From the NCBI RefSeq assembly GCF_026004075.1, contig NZ_BPIK01000001.1, forward strand, positions 658,041-722,040: a stretch of DNA of 64,000 nucleotides, read 5' to 3'. Shown here in pieces: positions 32,536 through 51,910 of the stretch. Source of the DNA: Meiothermus sp. (GTDB lineage: Bacteria > Deinococcota > Deinococci > Deinococcales > Thermaceae). The notes under the pieces were generated by a model that did not search any database, had not been told where the DNA came from, and saw nothing but the letters and a program-made list of their open reading frames with translations. The translations under genes were made by a program, and so were the position numbers. Positions within the stretch are counted from its first letter, which is position 1; each line of letters starts with the position of its first letter.

Positions 32536-32615
32536 ACTTCAGGTTAAATGCCCAGCCACCTTGGAGCTGTTCAAATTGCCCAAGTCGCTTCCGGAAACCG
32601 TCCTAGAATGCCTAT

Positions 32616-33668
32616 ATGACAACTCTTTTCCCGGTAATCATGGCCGGAGGGAAGGGAGAGCGATTCTGGCCCCTTTCCCGCCAAGATCGACCCAAGCAGT
32701 TTCTTAAGCTGCTACCAGATGGGCGCAGCCTAATTCAGGCAACAGTAGACCGGCTCATGCCGTTGGTGGGCGGATGGGAAGAGGTATGGGTAGTAACTAC
32801 CTTTAACCTGCTGGAGGGTATAGGTGAACACCTGCCGCCCCTGCCTGCCGAAAACCTGCTCATTGAGCCCGAACCACGGGACACTGCTGCTGCGGTGACC
32901 TATGCAACCCTCGAGATTCAACGCCGATTCGGGGATGATGCGGTTTTGGGCGTGTTCCCAGCAGACCACCACATCCAGGATGAAGAGCGTTTCCGCCAGG
33001 CGGTGCACGCCGCTGCAGAATTGGCGACACAGCGTGAGGCGATTGTTACGTTGGGTATCCAGCCTACCTTCCCGGCTACCGGATACGGCTATATCCAGCA
33101 GGGGGAGAAGATAGGGGCGTATGCAGGCCTGGAGGCTTTCACCGTTAACTGTTTTGCTGAAAAACCCGACCAGGCAACGGCTGAGGCCTACTTACGAGAG
33201 GGCAATTACTGGTGGAACGGGGGCATTTTTGTTTTTCGGGCGGGGGTGATGTTACGCGAGCTGGCACGTTTTGCTCCCCAGGTACTGGAACCGCTGCAGG
33301 CTAAGGGGCGTGAGGCTTATGCAGAGCTGCCTAAAAAGAGCCTGGACTACGCGGTGATGGAGCATACCGACAAAGCGTGCGTGATACCGGCTAGTTTTGG
33401 CTGGGACGACCTAGGCGACTGGAATGCCCTCGAGCGGTTGCTGGGGGCGACCGATAACCTCGAGCTTGCCCGCCACGTGGGTCTGGACACCCACGGCTCC
33501 ATCCTCTATACCACCGGCAACGATATCATCGTGACCCTGGGCCTTGAGAACGTGCTGATCGTACGTGACGGCCCCATTACCCTGATTGTGAAAAAAGAGC
33601 GCAGCCAGGAGATCAAAAAAGTCCTCGAGGCCCTGCGCCGCGACCCCGAGTTGGCCCGACACCTCTAG
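32616..33668 (+). CDS. Mannose-1-phosphate guanylyltransferase (GDP-mannose pyrophosphorylase)
   Basis: N-terminus PVIMAGGKGERFWPLSRQDRPKQFL. Length is 350 aa, the nucleotidyltransferase-only form. Confidence 0.88.
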   Translation: MTTLFPVIMAGGKGERFWPLSRQDRPKQFLKLLPDGRSLIQATVDRLMPLVGGWEEVWVVTTFNLLEGIGEHLPPLPAENLLIEPEPRDTAAAVTYATLEIQRRFGDDAVLGVFPADHHIQDEERFRQAVHAAAELATQREAIVTLGIQPTFPATGYGYIQQGEKIGAYAGLEAFTVNCFAEKPDQATAEAYLREGNYWWNGGIFVFRAGVMLRELARFAPQVLEPLQAKGREAYAELPKKSLDYAVMEHTDKACVIPASFGWDDLGDWNALERLLGATDNLELARHVGLDTHGSILYTTGNDIIVTLGLENVLIVRDGPITLIVKKERSQEIKKVLEALRRDPELARHL

Positions 33669-33672
33669 ACCT

Positions 33673-34872
33673 ATGGATCGCAGACGTTTTCTACAAAACA
33701 GCCTGGCCTTGTTTGCAGCCATGCTGGTGGTTAATGTGCTCAACTACGGCTATGCCCTGATTCTGGGGCGCTGGCTGGGCCCCACCGAGTATGGGAGCTA
33801 TGCCGCTTTTATGTCGCTATTTTTGCTTTTGACGGTGCTGCCCTTATCTTTGCAACAGGTGGGGGCGCGCTACGCCGCAGCGGGCTCGAGCGCGCTGACC
33901 TATACCCGCCTGCAGGCCCTGCGACTGGGGGGCACGCTGGGCCTGGCCCTGGCCCTCCTCAGCTTCCCATTAGGCCAGCTGAGCGCGCTGCCGCCCTTGT
34001 GGTATATCGTTCTGGGTGCTTTCCTACCCTTGTATGCCTTGCTGGGCGCGGCTCGCGGCGAGATCCAGGGGCGTCAGCAGCACAGCCAGCTGGGTAACAA
34101 CATGGTGTTGGAGCACCTTAGCAAGATTATCCTGACCTTTCCGGCCCTGCTAATTCTGCCAGGAGCGACCGCTGCAGTAGTGGCGACCCTGGTGGGGGTG
34201 GGGGTGGCGCTTGGGGTGCTGGGGAAAACCCTGCGGGCACAGGGGCCATCACGTCCGGAGGGTGGCTACGTCCTGGCTACGGGCAGCAATCTACTGGCCC
34301 AGGCCCTGATTCTCAATGCCGACGTGCTTTTGGCCAAGGCTTTGCTCGAGCCTACCCAGGCCGGTCTGTATGCGGCAGTGGCCATGATTGGCAGAATTGT
34401 TTTTTACGGCTCCTGGGCGGTGAGCATGGCCGTTTTTCCGATGGTGGCTCAGGCCCATGCCCAGGGACAAAACACCGCACGGCTGCTGGGATGGGCCTTT
34501 TCCAGCGTTGCCCTGATTAGCCTGGCTTTTGTTGGCGTCTGTGCCGCAGTACCCGAATGGGTGGTGGAGGTGCTGTTTGGGCCAGGTTATTTGGCGGCGG
34601 CTTCGCTGGTAGCCCCATATGCCCTGATGACTACTTTGTATGCCCTGGCCAACGTAATTTCCAATCATCTTTTGGCTCAAGGGTATGGCCAGGTGGGCTG
34701 GTGGGGGCTGGGCGCTGGTCTGTTGCAATTGCTGCTGATGTCGGCCTGGCATAGCTCTGGCCAGGAACTTATTGTGGCTCAGATGGTCGCCAAAGGCTTG
34801 CTGCTACTAGGTTTCATGCTTCTGATCGCTCAACAAGTTTTACGCTACGGGAGGCCGTATGTCCTACGCTGA
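33673..34872 (+). CDS. MOP/Wzx-like polysaccharide flippase family membrane protein
   Basis: Polytopic. The N-terminus FLQNSLALFAAMLVVNVLNYGYALILGRWLGPTEYGSYA resembles polysaccharide-biosynthesis (Wzx) proteins. Confidence 0.7.
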   Translation: MDRRRFLQNSLALFAAMLVVNVLNYGYALILGRWLGPTEYGSYAAFMSLFLLLTVLPLSLQQVGARYAAAGSSALTYTRLQALRLGGTLGLALALLSFPLGQLSALPPLWYIVLGAFLPLYALLGAARGEIQGRQQHSQLGNNMVLEHLSKIILTFPALLILPGATAAVVATLVGVGVALGVLGKTLRAQGPSRPEGGYVLATGSNLLAQALILNADVLLAKALLEPTQAGLYAAVAMIGRIVFYGSWAVSMAVFPMVAQAHAQGQNTARLLGWAFSSVALISLAFVGVCAAVPEWVVEVLFGPGYLAAASLVAPYALMTTLYALANVISNHLLAQGYGQVGWWGLGAGLLQLLLMSAWHSSGQELIVAQMVAKGLLLLGFMLLIAQQVLRYGRPYVLR

Positions 34873-35638
34873 CTTTGAACGCTGGCGTGACCAGGAATGC
34901 CCTAATCCGAAATTGTCGGTGGTGATTCCGGCCTATAACGAATCCGAGCGAATTTTGCCCACCCTGGGGGCTTTTGCGGTGGTGGTTTCGGGGATGGAGC
35001 TGTGCTGGGAACTTATCGTTTCCGACGATGGCTCTGTCGACGGTACCGCCGATTTGGTTGAGCGGCTGGGCTGGAAGAACCTGCGGGTGCTGCGCCACGC
35101 CAATACTGGCAAGGGCGGGGCCGTACGCCGGGGGGTACTGGCAGCTAAGGGACAGCGTGTGCTTTTTGCAGACGCCGACAACTCTACCCCGATTGAAGAA
35201 CTTCCACGACTTTTAGCAAAGCTGGACGAAGGCTTTGACCTAGCGGTGGGGTCTCGAGCAGCTGAAGGAGCTAAAGAAGAGAACAAAAGCCTGGTGCGCC
35301 ATCTGGCTAGCTGGGGGCTGCGCTTGCTGGCCCGCTGGCTGTCGGGTGTGACTGTCAAAGACACCCAGTGTGGTTTCAAGCTGTTTAGCCGCAAGGCGGT
35401 TCAAGAGTTATTTCCGCGCCAGCGTATGATGGGTTTTTCGTTTGACCTCGAGCTTCTCTACCTGGCCAATCGTCTGGGGCTAAAGGTAGCCGAGGTGCCG
35501 GTGCGCTGGTTCGACGCTCCCGGCTCCAAGGTAGATCCTGTTAAGGACTCGCTTAAGTTCCTAAAAGACATCCTGGAAATCCGACGACTCGACCGGCAAG
35601 GGGTTTATCAGTCAGCCAGTGCGGAGGTAAGGGGCTAG
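34859..35638 (+). CDS. GT2 glycosyltransferase, DPM1/ALG5-like polyprenyl-phosphate hexose synthase
   Basis: Contains LSVVIPAYNE, VSDDGSVDGT, NTGKGGAVRRGVL and FADADNSTP. The start overlaps the flippase stop by 14 nt and follows GGGAGG. Confidence 0.85.
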   Translation: MSYADFERWRDQECPNPKLSVVIPAYNESERILPTLGAFAVVVSGMELCWELIVSDDGSVDGTADLVERLGWKNLRVLRHANTGKGGAVRRGVLAAKGQRVLFADADNSTPIEELPRLLAKLDEGFDLAVGSRAAEGAKEENKSLVRHLASWGLRLLARWLSGVTVKDTQCGFKLFSRKAVQELFPRQRMMGFSFDLELLYLANRLGLKVAEVPVRWFDAPGSKVDPVKDSLKFLKDILEIRRLDRQGVYQSASAEVRG

Positions 35639-35639
35639 T

Positions 35640-36803
35640 ATGCACCTGGCACTCGTTACCACCTACCCTCCCAGCCAGGGCACCTTGGTGGAGTATGGGG
35701 CCCATCTGGCACGGGTATTTGCGGCCAAGCCCGAAATCGAACGCCTAACGGTGTTGGCCGACTGCCTACCTAAAGAGATGGCCGCTCCCCCCGACCCGAC
35801 CAATGTTCGCCGGGTCTGGACTTTCGGTAGCCCACTTAATTCGCTGCGCCTGGCTCGCACCATTCAGCAGCTTCGGCCGGATGGCGTAATCTATAACCTC
35901 CAGTTTGCCAGCTTCGGTGGATCCGCTGTTCCGGCTGCGCTGGGCCTGCTAGCCCCGGGCATGACACGGGCTTTAGGCATACCGACCATCACTTTGTTGC
36001 ACAATCTTTTTGAAACCATCGACCTGCGCCAAGCAGGTTATGCACAGAGCCCCTTCAAGGAGCAGGTGCTGCGGGCAGGGGGGCGGCTTTTTACCCGACT
36101 GTTGTTGCAAAGCCACCTGGTCGCCACGACCATGCCCACCTATGTAGAGATTTTGCGGCGCGAATATGGGGCTAAGAACGTGTTTCTGGCGCCCCACGGG
36201 GCCTTTGAAGACCCCGGCCCCCCACCGCCCCTGCCCGAGGCTAAGCGGGTGCTGGCCTTTGGGAAGTTTGGCACCTACAAGCGCTTGGAAACCCTGCTGG
36301 AAGCGCACCAACTTCTGCTAAAGCGCGACCCAGCTGTAGAGCTGGTGGTGGCTGGTACCAACTCGCCCAATGCGCCTGGATACCTCGAGGGCTTACGGGC
36401 AGTTTACGGCGATATCCCCGGCGTGATTTACACCGGTTACGTGCCCGAGGAGGAGGTGGCCAAGGTTTTTAGCGAGGCGTATGTGGTTGCTTTTCCTTAT
36501 ACCGCCACCACCGGCTCCTCTGGGGTGCTGCACCAGGCTGGACAGTATGCCCGACCTGCGGTTATGCCACGCATCGGCGATCTGGCTGAGCTGGTAGAAG
36601 CCGAGGGGTACCGGGCCGAGTTTTTCTCACCTGGGGATGCCAAGGGGCTGGCAGAGGCCCTGTGGCGGCTATTTAGCGACCGTGAGTACGCCCAACAAAT
36701 TGGACTGGCCAACTACCGCGCCTCGGTAGGGGTTTTGCTCGAGGACGTGGCAGACTGGTACTTACTTCACTTTGAACGCCTGAGGAGGAAATATGCACAT
36801 TGA
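35640..36803 (+). CDS. GT4-family (GT-B fold) glycosyltransferase
   Basis: The C-terminal half contains FGKFGTYKRLETLLEA..., VFSEAYVVAFPY and SSGVLHQA, resembling the EX7E region of GT4 enzymes. Confidence 0.8.
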   Translation: MHLALVTTYPPSQGTLVEYGAHLARVFAAKPEIERLTVLADCLPKEMAAPPDPTNVRRVWTFGSPLNSLRLARTIQQLRPDGVIYNLQFASFGGSAVPAALGLLAPGMTRALGIPTITLLHNLFETIDLRQAGYAQSPFKEQVLRAGGRLFTRLLLQSHLVATTMPTYVEILRREYGAKNVFLAPHGAFEDPGPPPPLPEAKRVLAFGKFGTYKRLETLLEAHQLLLKRDPAVELVVAGTNSPNAPGYLEGLRAVYGDIPGVIYTGYVPEEEVAKVFSEAYVVAFPYTATTGSSGVLHQAGQYARPAVMPRIGDLAELVEAEGYRAEFFSPGDAKGLAEALWRLFSDREYAQQIGLANYRASVGVLLEDVADWYLLHFERLRRKYAH

Positions 36804-37083
36804 GCGTTACGACCAAGATGGTCGAACCATCTACACGTTGCAAGGGCGCTTTGATGCACACCAGGTGCCCATGCTCAAAAGCAGCTTGGAGCTGGGCTCC
36901 AACACAGTGCTGGACATGGCAGGGGTCAACTTTGTGGACTCGAGCGGCCTGGCGTTGCTGGTGAACCTGTACAAGCGCGCCCGCGAAGAAGGTAGAACGC
37001 TAACAATTCGCAACCTGCAAGACCCGGTGCGTCTGATTCTGGAGATTACCGGATTGCTTGGGATTTTGCCCATTGAGGCTTGA
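36793..37083 (+). CDS. STAS-domain anti-sigma-factor antagonist-like protein 1
   Basis: Contains LDMAGVNFVDSSGLALLVNLYKRA, with the phosphorylatable Ser in DSSGL. The start overlaps the GT4 stop. Confidence 0.88.
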   Translation: MHIERYDQDGRTIYTLQGRFDAHQVPMLKSSLELGSNTVLDMAGVNFVDSSGLALLVNLYKRAREEGRTLTIRNLQDPVRLILEITGLLGILPIEA

Positions 37084-37085
37084 GT

Positions 37086-38201
37086 ATGCCCGATACGGCT
37101 TTACAGGAACTGGAAAACCTTAGTGAAGCCCTGGCCGATTGCTACGACCGCACGGTATGGCTCGAGCATCTAATGGTGCGTTCGGCCCAAATTGCCAGCG
37201 AGGCCGATGTTCTGGCGTTGCTGTCGGAAGCCGCACAGGAACTTTCGTGTGCTGGAGCGGCTATCTGTGCAAGAGGGCGCTGGCTGCAGGAGGTGCCTTC
37301 GTGGCTGGCTGCCCTTCCTGCTCCTGCCAAGCGGCTGCAAAGGCGCGAGGAAGCACTGTACGCAGTGGCTTTTCCTGGGGGTTGGCTGGCTTTGTGGGGG
37401 CACTCGATGCCGTTCAGCGCCCACGACCAGCGTATTGTTGACGCGTTGGCGCAGATGATTGGGGTCTCGCTCGAGCGTTTGGAAGACCAGGTGTTGAGGG
37501 AGCGACTGAGACTGGAAGAACACGAACGTGCTCTGGCCAGCCAGATTTGGAGTACGTTGGTGCCCAATCAACTGTCCGCCCCGACCGGCTATACCCTGCT
37601 AAGCAGCTTTCAGCCTGCCCGCGACCTGGGCGGAGATTTTCAGCTAGCTCTAGGGAGCTGGCGTGTGCTGGGAGACGTTAGTGGTAAAGGACTGCCAGCC
37701 GCTATGCACAGTGGGCTGTTGAGCGGCCTTGTACCCATAGCCCTCGAGCAGCCCAATCCGCTCAAGGCTTTGGCGAGCGCCGCAGCACCTTTGCTCGAGC
37801 GAGCCGGGGCTTTTGCTACCCTGGCGCTGATTAACTTTGAACAGAACGGCAGCCTTGTTTATGGCAGCTTTGGCCACCCACCTTTGTTGGTGCGCCGCCT
37901 CGATGGCAGGGTAGAGGCCCTGGGCGCTACCGCTCCACCCCTGGGACTTTTTGACCCTCCTCCAGAGGCGATGCGGCATTTCGAACTGAGGCCAGGAGAG
38001 CTATTGCTGGTGTACACCGATGGTCTCATTGAAGCGGCCCGGAACGGTGAGCTGTTTGGTCTCGAACGCCTAAGCAACCTGCTGGAGGCCAATTCCGAGC
38101 CCGAGGTTTTTTTACAGGAACTTAGAGCAGCCATGCACGCCTTCGAGGTAAGTGACGACTTTGGGCTACACATTTATCGGTATGTGGGGGTGGGGTCATG
38201 A
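37086..38201 (+). CDS. PP2C/SpoIIE-family phosphatase with N-terminal input domain (RsbU-like)
   Basis: Contains ARDLGGDF, LGDVSGKGLPAAM, YTDGLIEA and a terminal DD. Confidence 0.85.
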   Translation: MPDTALQELENLSEALADCYDRTVWLEHLMVRSAQIASEADVLALLSEAAQELSCAGAAICARGRWLQEVPSWLAALPAPAKRLQRREEALYAVAFPGGWLALWGHSMPFSAHDQRIVDALAQMIGVSLERLEDQVLRERLRLEEHERALASQIWSTLVPNQLSAPTGYTLLSSFQPARDLGGDFQLALGSWRVLGDVSGKGLPAAMHSGLLSGLVPIALEQPNPLKALASAAAPLLERAGAFATLALINFEQNGSLVYGSFGHPPLLVRRLDGRVEALGATAPPLGLFDPPPEAMRHFELRPGELLLVYTDGLIEAARNGELFGLERLSNLLEANSEPEVFLQELRAAMHAFEVSDDFGLHIYRYVGVGS

Positions 38202-38560
38202 GATTAGTTCTTACCCTACCTGCTTGCACCGGCTCCCTCGAGCCACTGTCGGAGTTTTTGCGTGCTCAGGGGCTGGGTATTTTAGAAGAGCTGGTGGTGA
38301 ACGAACTGGTAACCAACGCCATTGTGCATGGGCGAGCCCGCTGTTTTCGTGTGCGCATGGGGTCGGGATGTAAGCGGGTGTGGTTGCTCGACGATGGCAT
38401 GCCCTTTAATCCCCTCGAAGGGCCGGTGCGGCCGATGGGAGAGATGCGTGAAGGAGGGTACGGAATGGCAATTGTACATAAGGTGGCACGTGGGTTGCGG
38501 TACTCTAGGAAAGGTGGCTGGAACTGCCTTACGCTTGAGTTTGGCGAGGTGGAAAGGTGA
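38198..38560 (+). CDS. RsbW/SpoIIAB-like serine kinase (HATPase_c), 120 aa
   Basis: Contains the N box ELVVNELVTNAIVHG and G boxes LLDDGMPFNP and GGYGMAIVHK. ATGA overlap with the phosphatase gene. Confidence 0.8.
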   Translation: MRLVLTLPACTGSLEPLSEFLRAQGLGILEELVVNELVTNAIVHGRARCFRVRMGSGCKRVWLLDDGMPFNPLEGPVRPMGEMREGGYGMAIVHKVARGLRYSRKGGWNCLTLEFGEVER

Positions 38561-38868
38561 TTCACTACGAGATGATCTCCGAAACTGCAGCCCGGTTTGC
38601 CATAGAAGGTCGACTGGATGTACAACAAGCCCCTGTTTTACGCCAGTCTCTGGGCGAAGCCCGCGATCGTGGAGCCAAGGATCTGCGACTGGACATGAGC
38701 GGGGTGGATTTCATGGACTCGGCTGGTCTGGCTGCGCTGGTTTCCGGGCTTAAGCAGGTCAAAAACAATGGGGGTAGCCTGGTTATTGAGAACCCCAGCC
38801 CGGCAGTGCGGAAGGTGCTCGAGCTAACCCTTCTGGACAAAGTTATCCCAATTGAAGAGGGCGCATGA
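38557..38868 (+). CDS. STAS-domain anti-sigma-factor antagonist-like protein 2
   Basis: Contains LDMSGVDFMDSAGLAALVSGLKQ. The GTG at 38557 overlaps the kinase stop (GTGA) and follows GAGGTGGA. Confidence 0.88.
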   Translation: MIHYEMISETAARFAIEGRLDVQQAPVLRQSLGEARDRGAKDLRLDMSGVDFMDSAGLAALVSGLKQVKNNGGSLVIENPSPAVRKVLELTLLDKVIPIEEGA

Positions 38869-39215
38869 TTTTAGCTGTAGACGACGAACCTCACATTCGC
38901 CATGTGCTGCGCTTGGTTCTGCAGCGGGCAGGCTATGAGGTACTGGTGGCGGATAATGCACGTGAGGCGCTGGATACATGGCAGAGCCGCCCGGAGATCC
39001 GCCTTCTGGTTACCGATCTGGTGATGCCAGGCATGAACGGGTTCGATCTGATTCGCCAAGTACGCCAGACCTCGAGCCTGCCCATATTGGTGCTGACAGC
39101 CAGCGGTGAAGAGCAATTCGAAATCGAAGCGCGCCAACTGGGGGCAGATGCATTTTTAACCAAGCCTTTTTCCCGCGAGGAATTGCTGCGCGAGGTGAGC
39201 CGGCTCCTCGGCTAA
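38865..39215 (+). CDS. Stand-alone response-regulator receiver (CheY-like)
   Basis: Contains ILAVDDEPHIR, LLVTDLVMPGMNG, VLTASG and FLTKPF. ATGA overlap with the upstream gene. Confidence 0.9.
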   Translation: MILAVDDEPHIRHVLRLVLQRAGYEVLVADNAREALDTWQSRPEIRLLVTDLVMPGMNGFDLIRQVRQTSSLPILVLTASGEEQFEIEARQLGADAFLTKPFSREELLREVSRLLG

Positions 39216-42200
39216 GTGGCCCGGGCGCCCATGCTGCGCAATTTGTCATATCCGGCAATTCGGGAGTTAAAAGAGGAGCAGCCCGGCCTGGTTCTCCTGG
39301 CTGTGGCCTTATTGCTTACTGTGCTTTACCACGGCACTTTGCTTTTTAATCTGCAGTATTTTCGCACCTACGACGCTCTGATACACACCTTCTTTGGGGC
39401 GCACTATGCCCAAAGCTGGTTTGACCCCTGGGAGCCGCGCTGGTACACCGGCTTCTCGCTGGTCTCCTACCCTCCGCTTTCCCATTTTCTGATTGCTATA
39501 GCCTCCAAGGTAGTGGGGTTGAAACTGGCTTTCGCCCCGGTGCAGCTGTTTGCTCTGCTTCAGCTTGCTGTAGGCGTTTACCGCTTCTCGAGGCTATTTG
39601 TATCCCCTAAGGCGGCGGGCTTTGCGGCGCTGGCCCTGGTGCTCTCGAGCGCCATCGCTGAAACCGTGCACGTGTTTGGCCAGCTACCCACTACGCTCTC
39701 GCTGGGCTTTTTGCTCAACGCCATTCCCTGGGTGTGGGCCTACATTCGTACCGGGCGCTGGGGGTACTTGCTCAAGGCGGCGGTCTGGATAGGCTCAACT
39801 ACGGCGGCGCATCACGTCACTACCCTGTTTGGATCGGTGTTCTTTATCGGGCCGGTGGTGGCGATGCTGATTTTGGAGGGACTGCGCCAGCCTCGCCCAA
39901 ACGAGCCCGCGGGGACAGGTCCGTCGCAGCAGGTGCGGCGGCGGATGTACCGGGCCCTGCCCCGGCTATACCGAACGGGCGTTTTTGGCATGGTGGCCAT
40001 CGCGGCACTGGTGCTGGTGGTGCTGCCTTACTGGCTCTGGAGTCGCTCCGACCCCATTGCACAGGTGCCCATTCCCCACGGCAGCCGGGCCAATTTTTTG
40101 CAGCAGCCCAACATGGGGCTGATGTTCTGGCTCATCCCCTGGGCTAGCAGCCTGGTCTTCCTGCCCTACGCTTTCTACAAAAGCCTCTCCTACCTGTGGC
40201 CCCTTGGGGCCAGCCTGGGCTTGCTGTTGGTGTTGGGAACCGGTGGCACCACCCCCATCCCCAAGCTGCTTTTGCGGGGGGCTTTCGACATTCTGACCCT
40301 CGACCGCTTCACCTTCTGGGCCACCATCCTGGTATTGCCTTTTGTCGGAATGGCCCTGCAAAGCGCCCTCGAGGGCCGCCTGCGCCTGTGGCTCGAGGCC
40401 AACTTTGGTCGACGGGTGCGACTGCTGCTGCTGCTGGGGTTGGTGCTTTTCGTGGTGACTGCTTCCATCGGCATTTCGACGCTTACCCGCTACCGCAAGT
40501 TCCAGCCCGAGACCATCGAGATTGCCCCCATCCTGAGCTTTATCGAGAAGGACGAGCACTGGCGCTACCGCTACCTCACCCTGGGTTTTGGTGACCAGAT
40601 GGCCTGGCTTTCGGCCAACACCCGGGCCTCGACCCCGGACGGCAATTACCACTCAGCCCGCCGCCTGCCCGAGTTGACCACCACCCCGGTTGAGCGGCTG
40701 GAGGGTGCCAAGTACACCGGAGTTCCCGGAATCGGCAGCTTGCAGCAGTTTCTGACCTATCCTGAGCGCTATAACCTCAAGTTCATCTACTCCAACGATG
40801 CCTTTTACGACCCCCTGCTGCATTTTTACGGCTGGCATCGCCTGGGCCGTCTCGAGAACGGGATTGTGGTTTGGGAACGCGAAGACATCCCCCCTCTGCC
40901 CGAACGGTTGCCTCGACGCAAATTGCCAGTCTGGCAGCGCATGATGTGGGGTACGCTTCCCGTGGCTATGCCGCTGCTGGCTTACATGAGCTTGCTGCTC
41001 CCGCCGTTTCGCTCCCGGCGCTTGCCCTGGGTTCCGGCCCGTGTGCAACGTAGCCTGGCCGAAGACGCTCTACCGCCCGAGGCCCCGAGCCCCTGGCAGC
41101 CCTGGCTGCGCTTGCTGCACACCCTGGAAGGGCGTATAAGGGTTCAACGAAAGCCACTGGGCAGGCGGCTGCTGGCCTCGAGCCTGCTGGCTTTAGCGGT
41201 ACTGGGTCTGGGCTGGCTGGGCTGGCGGGCGCTCAACCCCCCCGACAGCCCGGAATGGGCGGTCATCCGCTACTGGGATCACCTCGACTTCAAACGCTTT
41301 GATAAGGCCTGGGAATGGATCGCGCCTATCGAGGGTCTGACCAAGGAGCGTTGGCAGCTCGACCTTAGCGTGCAAGGCGGCCTGCGCAGCGGTTACGCCA
41401 AGCTCGAGCACATCCGCCCGATGCGGGTGATTCGGCAGGATGGGCGGGCGCTAGTGCAGGTGGAGCTGACCTGGCTGACCGCGCTCCGAACCGTGCAGGA
41501 GACCCACGAACACCTGCTGGTGCACACCCCTGAAGGCTGGCGGATCGAGCAACGCCCACTGCTCAAAACCCGCCCCCCCGAGCGCTTTGCCAGCCAGCCG
41601 GGGGTGGAGTATTTCCGGGCCCAGCGGCGGCTCAGCACCGACATTACGGCTGCCGGCGATGTGCTGGATCGCCCTCTGCTGCGGCTGCGCTCGGCCCGGC
41701 TGGTGCGCTACTGGCCCGAGGATGCCCCCGAGCCCCGCCTGGCCATTGTGGGTGAGGTGGAAAACCTCGACGCCCGACCCGCCGACCTGACCATCAGCGG
41801 CTTTTTGCGTGGACGGGATGGCCTCGAGGTGAGCCGTAACAATGCTCGAGACCTGGTTTTGCACAAACTCCTGCCCGGCGAGCGTACCCCTTTCCGAATC
41901 GACTTCGACGGCGTAACCGCCCCACCTGACCCCGAAGCCATCGGAGATTTCGAGGTGGCTTTGAAGGCGGTGGTTACCTCGCGCGAACTGCGGCGTGACC
42001 TGGCCATCTGGAGTCGCCGCGAGGGCGAGGTGCTGCGGTTGCGGGTAGATAACTTGGGGGTGCGGGAGGCCACCGTGCCCCAGGTTTTGCTCTCGCTGTA
42101 CGACCGCAAGGGCCTGGCCTGGGTGGAGCGCGAGTACCTGCTGGAGTCGATTCCCCCGCGTGAGCGGCGCGAGGCGCGCATGCGGGCTGGACTACCCAAG

Positions 42201-42356
42201 GGCTATACGCTGCTCATGGAGCTGCGAAGGGTAAACGAAAGCCCCAACCTGCTCGAGCGCCTCGCTCCGGGCGTGCCCGCCGACACCCGGCCCCTGACGT
42301 CGGCTGGCCTGCGGGCCTACCGCCTGCAAGCCCAGGCTTTTTATCGGGAGGATTGA
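39216..42356 (+). CDS. 1046-aa polytopic membrane protein, GT-C-like (COG5617 / PTPS-related family by eye) with a large extracytoplasmic C-terminal region
   Basis: The N-terminal half is a succession of hydrophobic helices. The first loop is YFRTYDALIHTFFGAHYAQSWFDPWEPRWYTGFSLVSYPPLSHF. A further hydrophobic segment lies near 41165-41225, followed by a soluble region of about 390 aa. The start is GTG 39216 or ATG 39231. Confidence 0.8.
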   Translation: MARAPMLRNLSYPAIRELKEEQPGLVLLAVALLLTVLYHGTLLFNLQYFRTYDALIHTFFGAHYAQSWFDPWEPRWYTGFSLVSYPPLSHFLIAIASKVVGLKLAFAPVQLFALLQLAVGVYRFSRLFVSPKAAGFAALALVLSSAIAETVHVFGQLPTTLSLGFLLNAIPWVWAYIRTGRWGYLLKAAVWIGSTTAAHHVTTLFGSVFFIGPVVAMLILEGLRQPRPNEPAGTGPSQQVRRRMYRALPRLYRTGVFGMVAIAALVLVVLPYWLWSRSDPIAQVPIPHGSRANFLQQPNMGLMFWLIPWASSLVFLPYAFYKSLSYLWPLGASLGLLLVLGTGGTTPIPKLLLRGAFDILTLDRFTFWATILVLPFVGMALQSALEGRLRLWLEANFGRRVRLLLLLGLVLFVVTASIGISTLTRYRKFQPETIEIAPILSFIEKDEHWRYRYLTLGFGDQMAWLSANTRASTPDGNYHSARRLPELTTTPVERLEGAKYTGVPGIGSLQQFLTYPERYNLKFIYSNDAFYDPLLHFYGWHRLGRLENGIVVWEREDIPPLPERLPRRKLPVWQRMMWGTLPVAMPLLAYMSLLLPPFRSRRLPWVPARVQRSLAEDALPPEAPSPWQPWLRLLHTLEGRIRVQRKPLGRRLLASSLLALAVLGLGWLGWRALNPPDSPEWAVIRYWDHLDFKRFDKAWEWIAPIEGLTKERWQLDLSVQGGLRSGYAKLEHIRPMRVIRQDGRALVQVELTWLTALRTVQETHEHLLVHTPEGWRIEQRPLLKTRPPERFASQPGVEYFRAQRRLSTDITAAGDVLDRPLLRLRSARLVRYWPEDAPEPRLAIVGEVENLDARPADLTISGFLRGRDGLEVSRNNARDLVLHKLLPGERTPFRIDFDGVTAPPDPEAIGDFEVALKAVVTSRELRRDLAIWSRREGEVLRLRVDNLGVREATVPQVLLSLYDRKGLAWVEREYLLESIPPRERREARMRAGLPKGYTLLMELRRVNESPNLLERLAPGVPADTRPLTSAGLRAYRLQAQAFYRED

Positions 42357-42360
42357 ACCG

Positions 42361-43536
42361 GTGCCGCGAAAGATTCTCCTAGCCCTGCTATTGACCGTGG
42401 TGCTGGCCCTGGAGATTGGGGTGTTCTGGCTGCAGAGCCGCACCCCTGCTACATCGTCCCCACGGCCTGCTGCCTTGCAAGCAATCCGGGCGGAGGTGTC
42501 TACAGGGGGGGTGCGCTTCCAGGGCGAAGGGTGGTTCCGCGTAAGCCTTTTCACCCCGGCGGGGCCGCTGGTGGAGGAGGGGGAAGGGGAGGTTTTTATC
42601 CCCTACCGCCGGGCAGGGCTGATTCCTTACCGCCTCGAGGCCGGCAGTGCCAGCCTCGAGGGAACCCTGCGGCGGCGGCCTGGCCCAGCCACTACCCCCC
42701 TGCGGCCCAAGGTAGGGGCGCGGGCGGTTCGGATCGACACCCCCCGCCAGCCCTCGCTGGTGCTGCACCCCCTCGACGCACAGCTCAATGTGGCCGAGGA
42801 GCCGGTGCGTATGAAGGTGTTCTATCCCGATGGGAGTCAGCGGGAGTGGGTGCTACCGGTGGTTCACCAACTGGCCTGGAGCTATTTCCCGCCAGGAAGC
42901 CGCAAAGGAATCCTAAAGGTAGTGGTTCAGAGTGGAGCCGCCCGGGGTGAGCGGGCCGAGGTGGATGTGCTGCCTGGGCGCATTCGCTCTGGCGCGCTTG
43001 TGCTGCTACAGCCAGAGGCGGCTACTTCCGGACGCGACCGCTGGGTGCTCGAGGTACAGGGGCTGCGCGACGAAAAGGGCAATCTTGCCTCCGACGGGCT
43101 GGCTGTCAGTCTGATTGGCGGTGCTCTGGAGAACCTCTTTCTGACCCGCTCGGCGCCCCAGAGCCGTCTGCCCTTGTCGCTGCCGCTGCCCGACCGGGTG
43201 GGAAGCTACCCCTTGAGGGCCTGGAGCGAGGGCTGGGTCAGCAACGAGGCCACGCTACGGGCGCGCCCGGCGGTGCAAGTCGCGCACCTGCCGCTTTACT
43301 GGAGCGGAAACCAGTTGCACATTGGCCCGGTGGTGGACGATCTAGGGGCCCTTCCCGACGATGGAACCCCGATGCGGCTGCGCGTGGTGGATCCGGCCGG
43401 GCGGCTTTTGCTGGAAGAGCGTATCCTGCTGGCCAGCGGGCAGGCCCTCTGGACGCCCCCACCTTTGACCCGGCCTTTCTGGCTCGAGGTTGAGCTTGCA
43501 GGCCAGCGCGCACGCCTGGAGGTGCCCCGCCCATGA
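42361..43536 (+). CDS. Membrane-anchored/secreted hypothetical protein (391 aa), beta-rich Ig-like repeats by eye
   Basis: GTG start after GGGAGGA. The N-terminal anchor is MPRKILLALLLTVVLALEIGVFWL. No family recognised. Confidence 0.6.
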   Translation: MPRKILLALLLTVVLALEIGVFWLQSRTPATSSPRPAALQAIRAEVSTGGVRFQGEGWFRVSLFTPAGPLVEEGEGEVFIPYRRAGLIPYRLEAGSASLEGTLRRRPGPATTPLRPKVGARAVRIDTPRQPSLVLHPLDAQLNVAEEPVRMKVFYPDGSQREWVLPVVHQLAWSYFPPGSRKGILKVVVQSGAARGERAEVDVLPGRIRSGALVLLQPEAATSGRDRWVLEVQGLRDEKGNLASDGLAVSLIGGALENLFLTRSAPQSRLPLSLPLPDRVGSYPLRAWSEGWVSNEATLRARPAVQVAHLPLYWSGNQLHIGPVVDDLGALPDDGTPMRLRVVDPAGRLLLEERILLASGQALWTPPPLTRPFWLEVELAGQRARLEVPRP

Positions 43537-45092
43537 GCGAGCTTCGGCTCAAGCTGCTGGTCTGGGCAGGGCTGCTGCTGTTAGGTAGCCTGCTGGCCTT
43601 GCTGGGCCTGAGGGGGCTGGGTGAGCTTTTTCGCGTGGCTCAGCAAGCCAACACCGTTGAGCAGGCTCTCAACCTCATCGAGCCCCGCCGGGCCGCTCCG
43701 GGACGTCTGGAGTGGCTGCCCGACGACCCCACCCCGCGCCCGCTCGAGCCTTTTCGCCGCGACGAAATTACCAGCGACTACCTGCTGGCCCACGAGGAAC
43801 TTAGCCACGCCCACTTTACCGGTGAGACCATCGGGCTGCGCTCGTACTTCCAGTCGGGTGCGCTGGAAGATGCGCTACTGATGGGGCAGGGGCCGCGGGG
43901 GACGATGGTGGACTGGAAGCACCGCCTGAGGCTTCATTTCTACGCTCCAGACGGAGCAACGGTAGCCTTTAGCGATACCTACTGGTATGTGCTGGCCTCG
44001 GGGCAATTTTCCACCCGGCTGGCCGAACGCACCCTCGAGGTGGTGATGCAACTCGACGATGGCAACTGGCGCATTCACCACTGGCGGCTGCTGGCGGAGC
44101 GGCCCCTGTCGGTGCGCCTTCTGCCTGTAACGACTGCCGGGGTACGGGGGGTCAACTACCAGCCCCGCAGCCACCCTTTCGACCTTTTTGGGCCGGGCTA
44201 CGAACCCCGCGAGGTGATTAGCGACATGCGCATTAGCCGCATGCTGGGCCTTTCGACCCTGCGGGTTTTCGTGCCCTACCCACCTTCCCCGGGCTATCGC
44301 CAGCGACTGGAAGACTTCCTGAACCTGGCCCAGGCTCAGCAGATGAAGGTAATTGTTACGCTGCTGGACAGCTACACCCACTATCGCTTCGAAGACTTCC
44401 CCAACGTATTTGCCCACCTCGAGGAACTCGCCCCCCTGCTGCGACACCCTGCGGTCTGGTTGATAGACATCAAGAATGAGCCCGACCGTGACTACGCTCG
44501 AGCCGGCGAGCGTCTGGTGGTGGAGTTTTTGCGGGCCTGGTCGCGGGCCGTGCGCTACTACAGCTCGAAGCCCATAACCGTGGGGTTCATTGAGCCTCAC
44601 CCAGACCTGGTGCCCGAGATAGAGGTACTCAGTTTTCACCACTACGGGACTCCGGCAGAACTCCTTCGGCGTATCGAGGGGCTTGCCAAGTACCAAAAGC
44701 CGCTCTTGCTGGAGGAGTTTGGCTTCCACACCCAGCGCAACAAACTGCCTGATCCCCACACCGAACTCGAGCAGGCCCACTACTACGAGCGGGTTTTACA
44801 GATTGCCCGCCGCCATAACCTGGGCTGGTTGGCCTGGACGCTCTACGACTTCGATCGGGGCACAATGCCAGGGGGGCGGGCTGTAGAGAAACACCTGGGC
44901 CTGCTACGTGCCGACAGCACCCCGAAGCCCGTGGTGCAGGTACTAGCCGGCCAGCCCGCACCGCCGCTGGGCTGGGCCGAGCGGCTGGGCAAATGGCTGG
45001 TGTTCTGGCCCGGTCTATTGCTGGGAGGAGCTATGCTGGGATTGGGCATATGGCTGGCGCGGCGCGTGCGGTTTATTCGGAAGGCGCTTTAA
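43533..45092 (+). CDS. Clan GH-A (GH5-like) glycoside hydrolase with N- and C-terminal hydrophobic anchors
   Basis: Contains LIDIKNEPD (acid/base NEP), PLLLEEFGF (nucleophile Glu) and WLAWTLYDF. N-terminal anchor is LLVWAGLLLLGSLLALLGL; C-terminal anchor is WPGLLLGGAMLGLGIWL. Confidence 0.78.
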   Translation: MSELRLKLLVWAGLLLLGSLLALLGLRGLGELFRVAQQANTVEQALNLIEPRRAAPGRLEWLPDDPTPRPLEPFRRDEITSDYLLAHEELSHAHFTGETIGLRSYFQSGALEDALLMGQGPRGTMVDWKHRLRLHFYAPDGATVAFSDTYWYVLASGQFSTRLAERTLEVVMQLDDGNWRIHHWRLLAERPLSVRLLPVTTAGVRGVNYQPRSHPFDLFGPGYEPREVISDMRISRMLGLSTLRVFVPYPPSPGYRQRLEDFLNLAQAQQMKVIVTLLDSYTHYRFEDFPNVFAHLEELAPLLRHPAVWLIDIKNEPDRDYARAGERLVVEFLRAWSRAVRYYSSKPITVGFIEPHPDLVPEIEVLSFHHYGTPAELLRRIEGLAKYQKPLLLEEFGFHTQRNKLPDPHTELEQAHYYERVLQIARRHNLGWLAWTLYDFDRGTMPGGRAVEKHLGLLRADSTPKPVVQVLAGQPAPPLGWAERLGKWLVFWPGLLLGGAMLGLGIWLARRVRFIRKAL

Positions 45093-45744
45093 GTCGATAA
45101 CCTCGAGCAAATACGGTTTCGATATAGCTGGGATTCTTGGGGTTATCGCCCAGTTTTTTACGCAGGCGCTTGACGTAGTGATCCACAATCCGTTCATCGA
45201 CCTGGGGATCGCTACCCCAGACCTGAGCAAAAAGGCTTTGGCGGGATAGGGGCAGTCCGGGTTGTCGGGCCAGCGCCAGCAACAAAGCAAACTCAGTAGG
45301 GGTCAGCGGGAGTACAGTTCCACGCAGGCGGGCTTCCTGGGTGGCGGGCTCCAGCTCCAGCTCCCCTGCTTTTACCACGCCGTATCGGCGAGTGCGGCGT
45401 AATAAGGCCTCGATGCGAGCCAGAAACTCGGCACTGCGCAAGGGCTTGCCCAGGTAGTCGTCGGCCCCTTGGCGTAGGCCCTGTACGCGCTCGGCCTCGC
45501 CGTCGTGAGCGGTGAGCATAAGCACCGGCAGGTCGGGGCGTTCTTCGCGGATGTGACGCAGTAACTCCAGACCATTCATGCGTGGCATGTTCCAATCCAG
45601 CACAATCAGGTCGGCCTTATCCAGCAAATCCAGGGCCTCGAGCCCATGTGTGGCCTCGAGCACAACATAGCCTGCGCGCTCGAGCAGGGCCCGCAGTGTT
45701 CGGCGTACCACAGCTTCGTCGTCTACAACGAGGATATTAATCAT
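45073..45744 (-). CDS. OmpR/PhoB-family response regulator
   Basis: Start at the ATG at 45744 (MINILVVDDEAVVRR). Contains LIVLDWNMPRMNG, YLGKPL and the winged-helix tail IETVFARGYRL. Confidence 0.9.
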   Translation of the reverse strand: MINILVVDDEAVVRRTLRALLERAGYVVLEATHGLEALDLLDKADLIVLDWNMPRMNGLELLRHIREERPDLPVLMLTAHDGEAERVQGLRQGADDYLGKPLRSAEFLARIEALLRRTRRYGVVKAGELELEPATQEARLRGTVLPLTPTEFALLLALARQPGLPLSRQSLFAQVWGSDPQVDERIVDHYVKRLRKKLGDNPKNPSYIETVFARGYRLKAPSE

Positions 45745-45790
45745 CCAACTCGGTCTATAGCCTACCTTAAACCGCTTTGATACTTTCGAT

Positions 45791-46870
45791 TTACGCCACA
45801 AAAATACCATTGACATGCATAGCCAGCAGCAAACCCAGCAGTAGAGGGAACACAAAACGAATGAGATTATCCAGCCAGGGGCGCTCGGCAGCCTCCCCCA
45901 ATACCATGAAAGCAGGGAAGACCATCAGTACATAGCGGCTGAGACTCCCGGTTCCGCTGCTAAATGGAATAAGCAGGCTCAGGAGGCCGAAGAGGGCATA
46001 GCTCAATCCCCAGCGACGGGCGGCTATGAGCGACCCGGTGATCCCAAATGCCAGGGCCAGTAGATCCAGCAAAACGTTCCAGGAAATTGGGCCCGTCAGA
46101 AAGTTTTGCTCAAATAGGGGCCGGATTTCCCCAATAAACCCTCCGATTTCGCGGCTGAAGCTGCCCTGGACACTCCAAAAAGCCAGCGGGTCGTCAAACT
46201 GGATAGCCAGAAAAGCCATATAACTTAACAGTCCCAAACCGCCCAACCCAGCCAGGGCGAGACCCAAGAGCCACTGCCACTTGCCTCGCACCCCAGAAGC
46301 CCGCAGATACTCCAGCAATAACACCCCAGCCAGCAAAATCCCCGTTACCCTGGTGGCCGAAGCCAGTGCAGCGCCGAGTGCAGCCCATTTCCACCTGCGC
46401 TGGTGTAAGGCATAAAAAGCCAGCAATACCCACAGCAGCGACAGACTTTCGGTGTACACCGCACTGAAGTAGAAGCTCGTTGGAAAGATAGCCAGGTATA
46501 AAACGGCACGTCGAGCAGAAGCCTGATCGTTTAGAAGCTGGAGACACAGCTTCCAGAACGCCATTAAAGCCAGGGCAAAGCTTAGGTGGCTGAGGAGCAC
46601 CCCGGCCAGTACCGGATTGCCCACCAGCCCACTTACGCCCTTGAGCAAAAGTGGGTAAAGGGGAAAGAAGGCTACAGCCGAGGGTTCATCGGGGTAGAGG
46701 TAGTACCCCTCGGTTGCGATGTGCAGGTAAAAGCCGCTATCCCAACGGGCCCAGACATCGAGCCAAAGATTGGTCGGCTCGATGCGTCCTGCCATCTCAG
46801 GTGGCCCCGGCAGGGTGATATCGGCAAGGAAAGCAGCCCCCAGCAGGGTGATTCGAGTTAGAAAAAACAC
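45791..46870 (-). CDS. PIG-V-like mannosyltransferase family membrane protein (GT-C)
   Basis: Contains WARWDSGFYLHIATEGY followed by many TM helices. I place the start at the GTG at 46870. The track ORF extends to 47530, but that part overlaps the upstream gene out of frame. No good SD, so the start is uncertain (alternative ATG 46795). Confidence 0.72.
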   Translation of the reverse strand: MFFLTRITLLGAAFLADITLPGPPEMAGRIEPTNLWLDVWARWDSGFYLHIATEGYYLYPDEPSAVAFFPLYPLLLKGVSGLVGNPVLAGVLLSHLSFALALMAFWKLCLQLLNDQASARRAVLYLAIFPTSFYFSAVYTESLSLLWVLLAFYALHQRRWKWAALGAALASATRVTGILLAGVLLLEYLRASGVRGKWQWLLGLALAGLGGLGLLSYMAFLAIQFDDPLAFWSVQGSFSREIGGFIGEIRPLFEQNFLTGPISWNVLLDLLALAFGITGSLIAARRWGLSYALFGLLSLLIPFSSGTGSLSRYVLMVFPAFMVLGEAAERPWLDNLIRFVFPLLLGLLLAMHVNGIFVA

Positions 46871-51821: not shown

Positions 51822-51910
51822 TTGCTCGAGCGCGACTTCGGGTAGTTTTGTTCAAGGGTAGAAGGGTGCAGAATTGAACAGGCTTGAACAAGAGGAGGGA
51901 ATACAATCGG

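Follow-up and report, generated by a model that had tools for sequence, protein, structure and literature searches.

The window analysed here was a stretch of 64,000 nucleotides from Meiothermus sp. (phylum Deinococcota; contig NZ_BPIK01000001.1, positions 658,041 to 722,040 of the forward strand). It held a block of 12 plus-strand open reading frames (ORFs) combining genes for glycan assembly with genes for a protein-phosphorylation switch (Table 1). The block ran from 32616 to 45092, and its coordinates matched an earlier sequence-only reading of the same DNA exactly. Successive gaps were +4, -14, +1, -11, -4, -4, -4, -4, 0, +4 and -4 nt, with seven of the 11 junctions overlapping. The close or overlapping spacing that the earlier reading had described, here -14 to +4 nt, was thus recovered, as were all the junctions it quoted (34859/34872, 36793/36803, ATGA at 38198, GTGA at 38557 and ATGA at 38865 and 43533). 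GGAGG- or GAGG-like motifs preceded most internal starts. Neither terminator-like sites (17 within the block vs. 13.6 ± 3.5 in shuffles) nor promoter-like sites from a consensus scan (3 vs. 3.0 in shuffles) were in excess. The sequence is consistent with a single transcription unit for the 12 genes. An Rfam scan of the whole window gave no RNA family at threshold.

The gene content named by the earlier reading, a GDP-mannose pyrophosphorylase, a flippase, glycosyltransferases of families 2 and 4 (GT2, GT4), regulators, a polytopic protein and a hydrolase, was confirmed in Pfam, NCBIfam and PDB searches. Its statement that the block was less GC-rich than its surroundings failed: GC was 0.611 in the locus, 0.618 in the left flank, 0.586 in the right flank and 0.607 in the window. 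The idea of a low-GC island acquired by horizontal transfer was ruled out, the GC of the locus equalling the window mean. Composition was split inside the operon. Genes 1-9 (32616-39215) had a GC of 0.55-0.60 and a GC at third codon positions (GC3) of 0.58-0.68; genes 10-12 (39216-45092), coding for the GT-C-fold glycosyltransferase, the Ig-like protein and the glycoside hydrolase (GH), had 0.63-0.67 and about 0.76. The GC3 split at 39216 fits these three genes being a separable module, and the triad stands alone in several Chloroflexota loci. For comparison, 80 related loci with 10-kb flanks and four others were assembled, 84 altogether (designated by L numbers). The same 12-gene order was found in a Meiothermus metagenome-assembled genome (MAG; L005), the nearest species-level genome with the locus, with a GT-C protein 77% identical. 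The arrangement is not due to chance, since the order was kept in L005 and the core gene set recurred across phyla.

Table 1. Genes of the 12-gene operon and of its flanks (positions are those of the window).
Feature	Coordinates	Strand	Basis or remarks
ManC, mannose-1-phosphate guanylyltransferase	32616..33668	+	GMP domain only, without phosphomannose isomerase (PMI) domain
MOP-superfamily (Wzx-like) flippase, 399 aa	33673..34872	+	PF01943 Polysacc_synt, 36.6 bits vs. cut-off of 28.2
GT2 of polyprenyl-phosphate glycosyltransferase type (DPM1/ALG5/PpgS-like), 259 aa	34859..35638	+	sequence, profile and predicted fold
GT4 (GT-B fold, retaining family)	35640..36803	+	Glyco_trans_1_4 2.7e-18 and Glycos_transf_1
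STAS protein 1, phosphorylatable Ser in DSSG motif	36793..37083	+	PF01740 5.5e-17
SpoIIE/PP2C-type serine phosphatase, N-terminal putative sensor domain of ~190 aa	37080..38201	+	PF07228 6.7e-31, residues 196-364
RsbW/SpoIIAB-like serine kinase, 120 aa	38198..38560	+	PF13581 HATPase_c_2 3.2e-10
STAS protein 2, Ser in DSAG motif	38557..38868	+	PF01740 7.3e-20
Stand-alone receiver (REC) domain protein	38865..39215	+	PF00072 1.8e-29
GT-C-fold glycosyltransferase, uncharacterised family, 1046 aa	39216..42356	+	predicted structure, Foldseek
391-aa protein (Ig391), N-terminal membrane anchor	42361..43536	+	obligate neighbour of the GT-C protein
GH5-like (clan GH-A) hydrolase, 519 aa (GH519)	43533..45092	+	catalytic residues, profile
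PAS/GAF sensor histidine kinase, 1251 aa	28780..32535	-	Pfam PAS_4, GAF, HisKA, HATPase_c
OmpR-type response regulator, end of convergent operon	45073..45855	-	Response_reg and Trans_reg_C
PIG-V/PMT_2-like second GT-C protein	45791..46870	-	GTG start at 46870; PF04188 1.6e-11, 44.6 bits vs. cut-off of 22.4
Exported or anchored protein (U534), 534 aa	46921..48525	-	partner of the PIG-V-like GT-C protein; one N-terminal hydrophobic segment
DUF4842/DUF4114 lipoprotein	48612..50852	+	PF16130 1.7e-39, PF13448 8e-22, lipobox LAAC

The third gene, coding for the GT2, was assigned by several independent rankings. The protein matched PF00535 in Pfam (1.5e-27), and its DAD motif (D105-A106-D107), of the DxD type that binds metal and nucleotide sugar, was invariant in 21 and in 41 homologues. 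A phmmer search of the PDB returned ArnC (3e-20), PfDPMS (7e-19) and GtrB (1.5e-10). A profile of 21 cross-phylum orthologues ranked PfDPMS, the dolichyl-phosphate (Dol-P) mannose synthase of P. furiosus, first (2.8e-27, positions 18-246 of 265), followed by ArnC and GtrB. Only polyprenyl-phosphate GT2 enzymes matched in the PDB over the full length, the C-terminal interface-helix region included; other, non-lipid GT2 enzymes matched the profile over its N-terminal half only (positions 22-135). The AlphaFold2 (AF2) model had a mean predicted local distance difference test score (pLDDT) of 89 and the alternating beta-alpha, Rossmann-like topology of a GT-A fold. Its Foldseek ranks 1-22 were all ArnC, DPMS or GtrB, with a TM-score on the query of ~0.70, and the next group, WrtF and GpgS, scored ~0.62. 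In the model, the 259-aa chain ended after an amphipathic helix at 227-246, an anchorless state that resembles that of human DPM1 and of the PpgS subtype. The best NCBIfam matches were to Dol-P hexose transferase, PgfS, ArnC, AglJ and PpgS, at 59-70 bits vs. cut-offs of 325-529, and the public annotation was dolichyl-phosphate beta-glucosyltransferase. A public GT2 entry with 100% identity to that of the window carried the label Meiothermus sp., whereas an exact look-up of the 1046-aa protein of the tenth gene gave no record. By sequence and model, the GT2 belongs to the polyprenyl-phosphate GT2 clade, with orthology to any one characterised enzyme left unassigned.

The GT2 gene was accompanied by genes predicted to serve sugar supply, extension and transport. 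ManC matched NTP_transferase (7.9e-43) and ManC_GMP_beta-helix in Pfam and positions 1-348 of the 467 in TIGR01479 with 287 bits; it would supply GDP-mannose. Genes for ManC or type I PMI lay beside the cluster in L005, L018, L053, L001 and nine Flavobacteriaceae loci. Their recurrence in three lineages argues for GDP-mannose as one donor. The MOP flippase showed about 11 hydrophobic segments in hydropathy analysis and had homologues in 47 related loci. The GT4 gave weak matches in the PDB search, with no close characterised or informative solved relative. GT2-GT4 fusions were present in four loci from three lineages, namely Deinococcus (L001, L058), Acidimicrobiales and an Azotimanducaceae MAG (L056, L077). 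A GT4-STAS fusion was found in L071, on one MAG contig. Upstream of the manC start (32591-32615), no Shine-Dalgarno-like motif was present and a TAGAAT hexamer ended 7 nt before the ATG. Both features suggest that this first gene of the operon is leaderless or near-leaderless; the TAGAAT site was not called by the consensus promoter scan.

The 1046-aa protein encoded by the tenth gene was identified by its predicted fold. An AF2 model built from 55 homologues (pLDDT 84, predicted TM-score 0.83) showed a polytopic GT-C core at residues 1-430 and a periplasmic alpha/beta domain at 437-570, followed by two transmembrane (TM) helices. Residues 680-1046 formed an extracytoplasmic alpha+beta domain and two beta-sandwich domains. 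Foldseek matched the model to AglB (5.2e-7), yeast and human STT3, ArnT (TM-score on target 0.53), PglB, DPY19, AftA and EmbA/B, and the matches to AglB, STT3, ArnT, PglB, DPY19 and AftA had a probability of 1.00. No Wzy/WaaL-type structure was among the 50 matches listed. Residue D53 in the motif RTYDALIH did not vary among the 55 sequences, and its conservation was at least 90% in a cross-phylum set of 39. In the model it lay just after the first TM helix (13-44), at the start of helix 52-66, the position expected of a GT-C catalytic acid, and charge bias indicates that it would face outward. The protein stayed below the Pfam threshold for PF10131 (16 bits vs. 26.4). Among 39 homologues at E<=0.01, PF10131 was matched by 10 and PMT_2 by three. 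Since only 10 of 39 homologues touch PF10131, the family is without curated coverage. Membership of STT3 was rejected: the protein had no STT3 Pfam match, no WWDxG motif and no WW dipeptide anywhere.

Two further features of this family were observed. The loop at residues 475-500 (40638-40715; DGNYHSARRLPELTTTPVERLEGAKY) was near-invariant across phyla yet had a pLDDT below 50. Oligosaccharyltransferases have a mobile substrate-gating loop, EL5, and by analogy the loop may have the same role. Many relatives were only ~550-600 aa long (e.g. P0309, P0311 and P0314-P0316) and covered residues ~28-595. They comprised the core and the periplasmic domain, without the C-terminal TM pair and the beta-sandwich tail.

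The two genes that follow encode near-constant partners of the GT-C protein. The 391-aa protein had no Pfam or NCBIfam family match. Homologues gave sub-threshold matches to Big_1/Invasin_D3, and a profile search of the PDB returned marginal matches to Ig domains of titin, filamin and beta-galactosidase. It probably consists of Ig-like repeats, judged from matches of this kind, so that the label 'Ig-like' of the sequence-only reading is weakly supported. GH519 had TM segments at 3-21 and 488-506 and a conserved N-terminal domain of ~130 aa. In 20 cross-phylum sequences, R244, N315, E316, H369, E395 and W435 were invariant and Y371 was at least 90% conserved. This residue pattern is the catalytic signature of GH5 and clan GH-A, and a (beta/alpha)8 barrel would be expected. 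The profile matched endo-beta-mannanase 7bob (7e-15), GH5 endoglucanases, GH5_18 and GH2 barrels in the PDB. GH519 itself scored below the PF00150 gathering threshold (19.4 bits vs. 23.5), and 11 of the 20 homologues matched PF00150 at E<=0.01, the best at 7.9e-17. A domain common to the N-terminal region of GH519 and the C-terminal region of the GT-C protein was considered and rejected, hhalign finding nothing (probability 0.9%).

Between the GT4 and GT-C genes lay what had earlier been described as five regulators. They were present, and the description was incomplete: the five genes code for a full partner-switching set of two STAS proteins, a PP2C phosphatase and an RsbW-like kinase, together with a REC protein. 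The phosphorylatable residue was retained as Ser or Thr in 28/29 homologues of STAS protein 1 and as Ser in 40/41 homologues of STAS protein 2. None of the 12 operon products, and none of the tested neighbours, had a sigma-factor domain, and no such domain was conserved in the related loci. STAS, PP2C, kinase and REC genes stood beside glycosyltransferase genes in Deinococcota, Chloroflexota and Actinomycetota. They were absent from all 12 full-length Bacteroidota loci. In Flavobacteriaceae, the GT2 adjoining the GT-C protein carried an N-terminal REC domain. Other fusions were of the PP2C-kinase type, in five loci from Deinococcus, and of the REC-PP2C type, in L059. The switch probably gates enzyme activity and not transcription. 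That it acts on the GT2/GT4 step itself is argued by the travelling of the module with glycosyltransferase genes, the REC-GT2 fusion, the GT4-STAS fusion and the conserved Ser. Two Chloroflexota clusters (L019:1641-2768 and L021:1736-2863, both on the minus strand) encoded a PHP-domain-STAS fusion besides free STAS proteins, possibly an extra output or input of the switch. In an actinobacterial MAG (L003:2025-3047), a gene of the Exo_endo_phos (endonuclease/exonuclease/phosphatase) family was inserted between the REC and GT-C genes.

Conservation of the gene set was observed directly, as were the family and fold assignments and the domain fusions described above. With one genome per species scanned, the GT-C protein was carried by at least 580 species-level genomes. 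Its relatives number thousands and formed 845 clusters at 50% identity, 283 of them below 1e-30. Over ~1000 residues, identity was 45-60% between Deinococcota and Chloroflexota and ~38% to Bacteroidota. The GT-C, Ig-like and GH families were found in 81, 80 and 71 of the 84 loci, many of the absences coinciding with contig ends, and the order was almost always GT-C, then Ig-like, then GH gene. Genes for GT2, GT4 and MOP flippase were linked to this triad in Deinococcota, Chloroflexota, Actinomycetota and Bacteroidota. They lay within 10 kb in most loci of Deinococcota, Actinomycetota and Bacteroidota; for Chloroflexota, the fraction was about one half. Hosts included Meiothermus, a biofilm former, as well as Deinococcus, filamentous Chloroflexota, Actinoplanes and marine Flavobacteriaceae. 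Deinococcus metalli and D. rufus had a second GT-C paralogue of ~930 aa just downstream of the main cluster (L001:15394-20503 and L058:15016-20264). An Ig-like gene of its own and a divergent GH-like gene came with this paralogue; in L001, a PMI gene adjoined.

Bacterial polysaccharides are usually made by one of four routes, which are Wzx/Wzy-dependent, ABC-transporter-dependent, synthase-dependent or based on extracellular sucrases. The gene set of the operon fitted none of them cleanly. No initiating phosphoglycosyltransferase of the WbaP/WecA type (Bac_transf or Glycos_transf_4) was found among the operon, flanking or hydrophobic-segment ORFs of the window. No Pfam match to Wzy, Wzz/PCP or Wza/OPX was obtained among the window proteins tested. 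The polytopic proteins of the window were the MOP flippase and the two GT-C proteins; apart from these and GH519 with its two TM segments, no ORF had more than two hydrophobic segments. In a Pfam scan of the weakly hydrophobic ORFs of the window, matches were limited to a peptidase, an IS transposase, HisD and proteins of a similar kind. Across the 80 loci taken with 10-kb flanks, none of the four parts (phosphoglycosyltransferase, Wzy, Wzz and Wza) was conserved. Clustering all ORFs of the 84 loci yielded no further conserved family and no phosphoglycosyltransferase. The absence of these parts from the window, stated by the sequence-only reading, was thereby borne out.

The reading preferred here, held with somewhat more confidence than doubt, is that the operon encodes a conserved pathway which assembles a glycan outside the cytoplasm, uses a polyprenyl-monophosphate carrier and includes a protein-phosphorylation switch. 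Its step order, sugars, acceptor and regulatory wiring, as set out next, are what we infer. ManC would make GDP-mannose. Working at the inner membrane face, the anchorless DPM1/ALG5-type GT2 would load a hexose on polyprenyl phosphate, a committed step that would replace the phosphoglycosyltransferase. The GT4, fused to the GT2 in some genomes, would work with it and either extend the lipid-linked sugar or build an acceptor primer. The MOP flippase would carry the lipid-linked glycan outward. There, the GT-C protein, with D53 in its first outer loop, would transfer or polymerise the glycan, helped by the Ig-like partner and by beta-sandwich domains of its own, and the membrane-anchored GH5-like enzyme would trim or release the product. 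In this genome, the second, PIG-V-like GT-C protein would probably draw on the same kind of lipid donor to add branches. Regulation would start from the histidine kinase and pass to the REC protein, which would shift the balance of PP2C phosphatase and RsbW-like kinase. This balance would set the phosphorylation of both STAS proteins, and these would act directly on the GT2/GT4 step, not on a sigma factor.

Three features, a MOP flippase instead of one of the GtrA type, the GT4 and the repeated fusion of GT2 to GT4, favour a lipid-linked oligosaccharide or primer over a plain monosaccharide donor. For the same reasons, the GT2 may be the initiating enzyme and not merely the maker of a polyprenyl-phosphate-monosaccharide donor. 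A bolder form of the proposal describes a distinct route with archaeal- or eukaryotic-style logic in at least four bacterial phyla. In it, the DPM1/ALG5-like GT2 primes the monophosphate carrier, the GT4 extends, the MOP protein exports, and a new AglB/STT3-like GT-C family polymerises or transfers outside. The committed step is switched directly by STAS phosphorylation or, in Flavobacteriaceae, by the receiver fused to the GT2. This form is offered tentatively, its being wrong appearing the likelier outcome.

The sequence-only reading had proposed an extracytoplasmic, hexose- or mannose-rich glycoconjugate made by polyprenyl-phosphate-sugar and GT-C enzymes. Its placement of the GT2 in the polyprenyl-phosphate synthase clade agreed with the PDB, profile and Foldseek rankings, its view of the 1046-aa protein as GT-C-like with the AglB/STT3/ArnT-like predicted fold, and its membrane-tethered clan GH-A hydrolase with the invariant catalytic residues and TM segments. 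The GT2, GT-C and PIG-V families and the missing Wzx/Wzy parts thus stood; the proposal was incomplete on the switch, the oligosaccharide primer and the linkage cut by the GH-A enzyme, and its product and pathway are still matters that we infer. The outcomes it had named beforehand as contrary, a GT2 outside that clade, large membrane proteins outside GT-C-like families or a known extracellular polysaccharide cluster, were not what was found, and no matching published cluster was encountered.

Several points weigh against the preferred pathway. The roles of the cluster genes are read from sequence and predicted structures, and operon status is deduced from gene spacing. The GT2 reached no NCBIfam equivalog cut-off and had no TM anchor, with no TM segment after its catalytic domain. 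The flippase was of the MOP type, as in Wzx pathways, and not of the GtrA type. Several Chloroflexota loci held only the GT-C/Ig-like/GH triad within 10 kb. Other parts of the genome could hold a gene for a phosphoglycosyltransferase. The GT4-STAS fusion, seen on the single MAG contig of L071, could be a frameshift artefact, since the genes overlap in the window. Linkage chemistry is a further difficulty. An inverting GT2 followed by an inverting GT-C enzyme would produce alpha-linkages, as would a retaining GT4. Clan GH-A hydrolases normally cleave beta-glycosides (or alpha-L). A GH-A hydrolase, typically beta-specific, fits the predicted alpha-linkages poorly, and the scheme does not account for the bond that it would cut.

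This last conflict keeps alive the idea of a disguised Wzx/Wzy pathway, which is unlikely. An unlinked phosphoglycosyltransferase would prime undecaprenyl-diphosphate, the GT2 and GT4 would be repeat-unit transferases, the MOP protein would flip the unit, the GT-C protein would be polymerase or ligase, and the GH5-like enzyme would take the role of PslG. Inverting transfer from an alpha-linked diphosphate donor would give beta-linkages that a GH-A enzyme could cleave. The flippase did score above its Pfam threshold, a GT2, GT4, ManC and clan GH-A hydrolase together resemble Psl-type loci, and GT2/GT4 genes were not nearby in some loci, so components can be unlinked. Against this stand the only full-length relatives and the 22 best structural matches of the GT2, all polyprenyl-monophosphate glycosyltransferases. 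No phosphoglycosyltransferase, Wzz or Wza was conserved in the loci, as noted above, and the GT-C fold matched STT3, AglB and ArnT with nothing of the Wzy/WaaL type in the list of 50. The Psl locus of Pseudomonas itself includes PslB (ManC-type), PslC (GT2), PslF/H/I (GT4), PslG (GH39) and PslK (Wzx). The operon shares with it GDP-mannose supply, GT2, GT4, MOP flippase and a membrane-anchored clan GH-A hydrolase. Unlike Psl, it lacks counterparts of PslA (phosphoglycosyltransferase), PslJ (Wzy), PslE (co-polymerase) and PslD (outer-membrane export), and has a GT-C protein instead.

A role in protein glycosylation, including that of S-layer proteins or lipoproteins, is improbable. The GT2 and GT4 would build a short lipid-phosphate glycan as in archaeal AglJ pathways, and the GT-C protein would transfer it to exported proteins such as the DUF4842 lipoprotein. 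Oligosaccharyltransferases were the best structural matches of the GT-C protein, an AglJ-type model was among the top NCBIfam matches of the GT2, and DUF4842 proteins were encoded directly upstream of the GT-C gene in Deinococcales loci. However, that linkage was limited to few Deinococcota loci, the GT-C protein had neither the STT3 match nor WWDxG, and an obligatory hydrolase and Ig-like partner are more typical of polysaccharide machines. The likeness to archaeal Dol-P N-glycosylation (AglJ, further glycosyltransferases, a flippase and AglB) is that a DPM1-like GT2 would initiate on a monophosphate and that AglB was the best structural match of the GT-C protein. Besides the missing STT3 features, the operon differs in its GH and Ig-like partner and in having no known acceptor protein. 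A Pel-like, synthase-dependent pathway, with GT4 and MOP-like protein (cf. PelF and PelG) polymerising and exporting a backbone that GT2 and GT-C protein only decorate from outside as a three-component modification system, is slightly more improbable: conservation joins the GT4 with a membrane protein of the MOP family, the hydrolase resembles PelA, PslG or BcsZ, and GT2 with GT-C is the classic decoration pair (PMC8035078), but the membrane protein matched Polysacc_synt and not the PelG family, the GT2-GT4 fusions tie the GT4 to the GT2 and not to the exporter, and the GT-C, not the GT4, was the most conserved and universal gene.

Several known systems can be compared with the preferred monophosphate-carrier pathway. 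In lipomannan/lipoarabinomannan (LM/LAM) synthesis and protein O-mannosylation of mycobacteria and corynebacteria, ManC, the GT4 enzymes PimA/PimB, the GT2 Ppm1 and the GT-C enzymes MptA/MptB/Pmt act. The locus shares this enzyme logic, with its families confirmed here: GDP-mannose supply, a cytoplasmic GT4, a GT2 like polyprenyl-phosphate-mannose synthase and GT-C enzyme(s) working outside. Unlike the mycobacterial LM/LAM set, the operon occurs in other phyla and has in addition a MOP flippase, a GH and a partner-switching module, and its GT-C protein showed no sequence-level orthology to Mpt/Pmt beyond the fold (PMT_2 in 3/39 homologues). Three-component polyprenyl-phosphate-sugar/GT-C systems are the precedent for the chemistry (PMC11127046, PMC8035078), and a GtrA/GtrB-dependent glucan in L. 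johnsonii is another (PMC7117936). GtrA/GtrB/GtrC, CsbB/GtcA/YfhO, ArnC/ArnT and PpgS/Rv3779 likewise pair a DPM1/GtrB-type GT2 with a polytopic GT-C enzyme and place the sugar outside on a polyprenyl monophosphate (PMC11127046, PMC8035078). In contrast to these systems, the flippase of the operon is a 399-aa protein of MOP/Wzx type and not a small GtrA, and its GT2 is anchorless and sometimes fused to the GT4. The GT-C protein of ~1050 aa belongs to a family without a characterised member and always comes with Ig-like and GH5-like partners. Nothing points to a separate backbone pathway that the operon would decorate.

Regulation of this kind also has precedents. The kinase Alr3423 of Anabaena switches off the STAS-Bac_transf enzyme All4160, and the REC-PP2C phosphatase HenR restores the activity of this enzyme (PMC13555669). 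SypA/SypE of the syp locus of Vibrio fischeri are a second parallel (PMC4517449). As in HenR/Alr3423/All4160 and SypE/SypA, STAS protein, PP2C phosphatase and RsbW-like kinase are encoded with polysaccharide genes, a sigma factor is missing, the STAS phospho-Ser is conserved and a REC domain is involved. Unlike both, the operon has two free-standing STAS proteins and a separate REC protein, and unlike in Anabaena its likely target is the GT2/GT4 pair and not a Bac_transf phosphoglycosyltransferase. The authors of the Anabaena study took this type of control over biosynthetic enzymes to be a lineage-specific feature of cyanobacteria (PMC13555669), whereas the module of the operon type spans three other phyla.

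Each class of component in the operon is familiar, but neither the conserved combination nor the GT-C family has a characterised member. If the preferred pathway is true, it would define a function for this family. It would provide a case of a GT2-made, monophosphate-linked hexose starting or feeding polymer assembly, and direct partner-switching control of glycosyltransferases would extend well beyond cyanobacteria and Vibrio. The REC-GT2, GT2-GT4 and GT4-STAS fusions offer concrete, testable wiring. The GT2/GT-C pair itself is unsurprising to specialists; the breadth of conservation, the absent phosphoglycosyltransferase and the fusion-supported regulation make a well-posed problem. No paper describing the cluster was found in the literature. 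Actinoplanes carries the GT-C protein, and for this reason the wps/gsf clusters of Actinoplanes missouriensis were compared as a possible described equivalent. They were rejected as different, having no STAS protein and no GT-C.

The genes on both flanks included possible parts of the same system. The divergently encoded histidine kinase upstream of manC is a candidate input to the REC protein, and histidine-kinase genes adjoined the cluster in many Actinomycetota and Chloroflexota loci. Downstream, the OmpR-type regulator probably has its true start internally, at MINILVVDD. The PIG-V-like GT-C protein that the sequence-only reading had placed in the convergent operon was found there, above the Pfam threshold for PF04188. 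It also matched NF046093, 'cell surface glycopolymer formation protein', at 2.3e-7. Its 534-aa partner had no Pfam or NCBIfam match. Homologues of this pair lay inside an Anaerolineaceae cluster (L034) and abutted the GT-C gene in Deinococcales (L018 and L053), where two-component genes came after the PIG-V-like gene. One or two copies of DUF4842 proteins were encoded on the same strand directly upstream of the GT-C gene in Deinococcales (L015:65-2077, L018:5095-9846 and L053:7411-9825). The lipoprotein is possibly a substrate of the system or a glycan-binding partner. Because homologues of the PIG-V-like and 534-aa proteins were embedded in the cluster in L034 or abutted the GT-C gene in L018 and L053, where DUF4842 genes abutted it too, the convergent genes of the window probably belong to the system of the operon.

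Right after the DUF4842 gene, an insertion sequence (IS) transposase of the IS4/IS5 family with DDE domain (DUF4096 and DDE_Tnp_1; 50849-51655, minus strand) marked the right edge of the glycan region. Beyond it lay, on the plus strand, genes for a 1142-aa PAS/GAF/HD_5 protein (51884-55312), possibly a cyclic-di-GMP phosphodiesterase of the HD-GYP type, and then for a PilT/T2SSE-type ATPase (55563-56663). Both may relate to surface behaviour.

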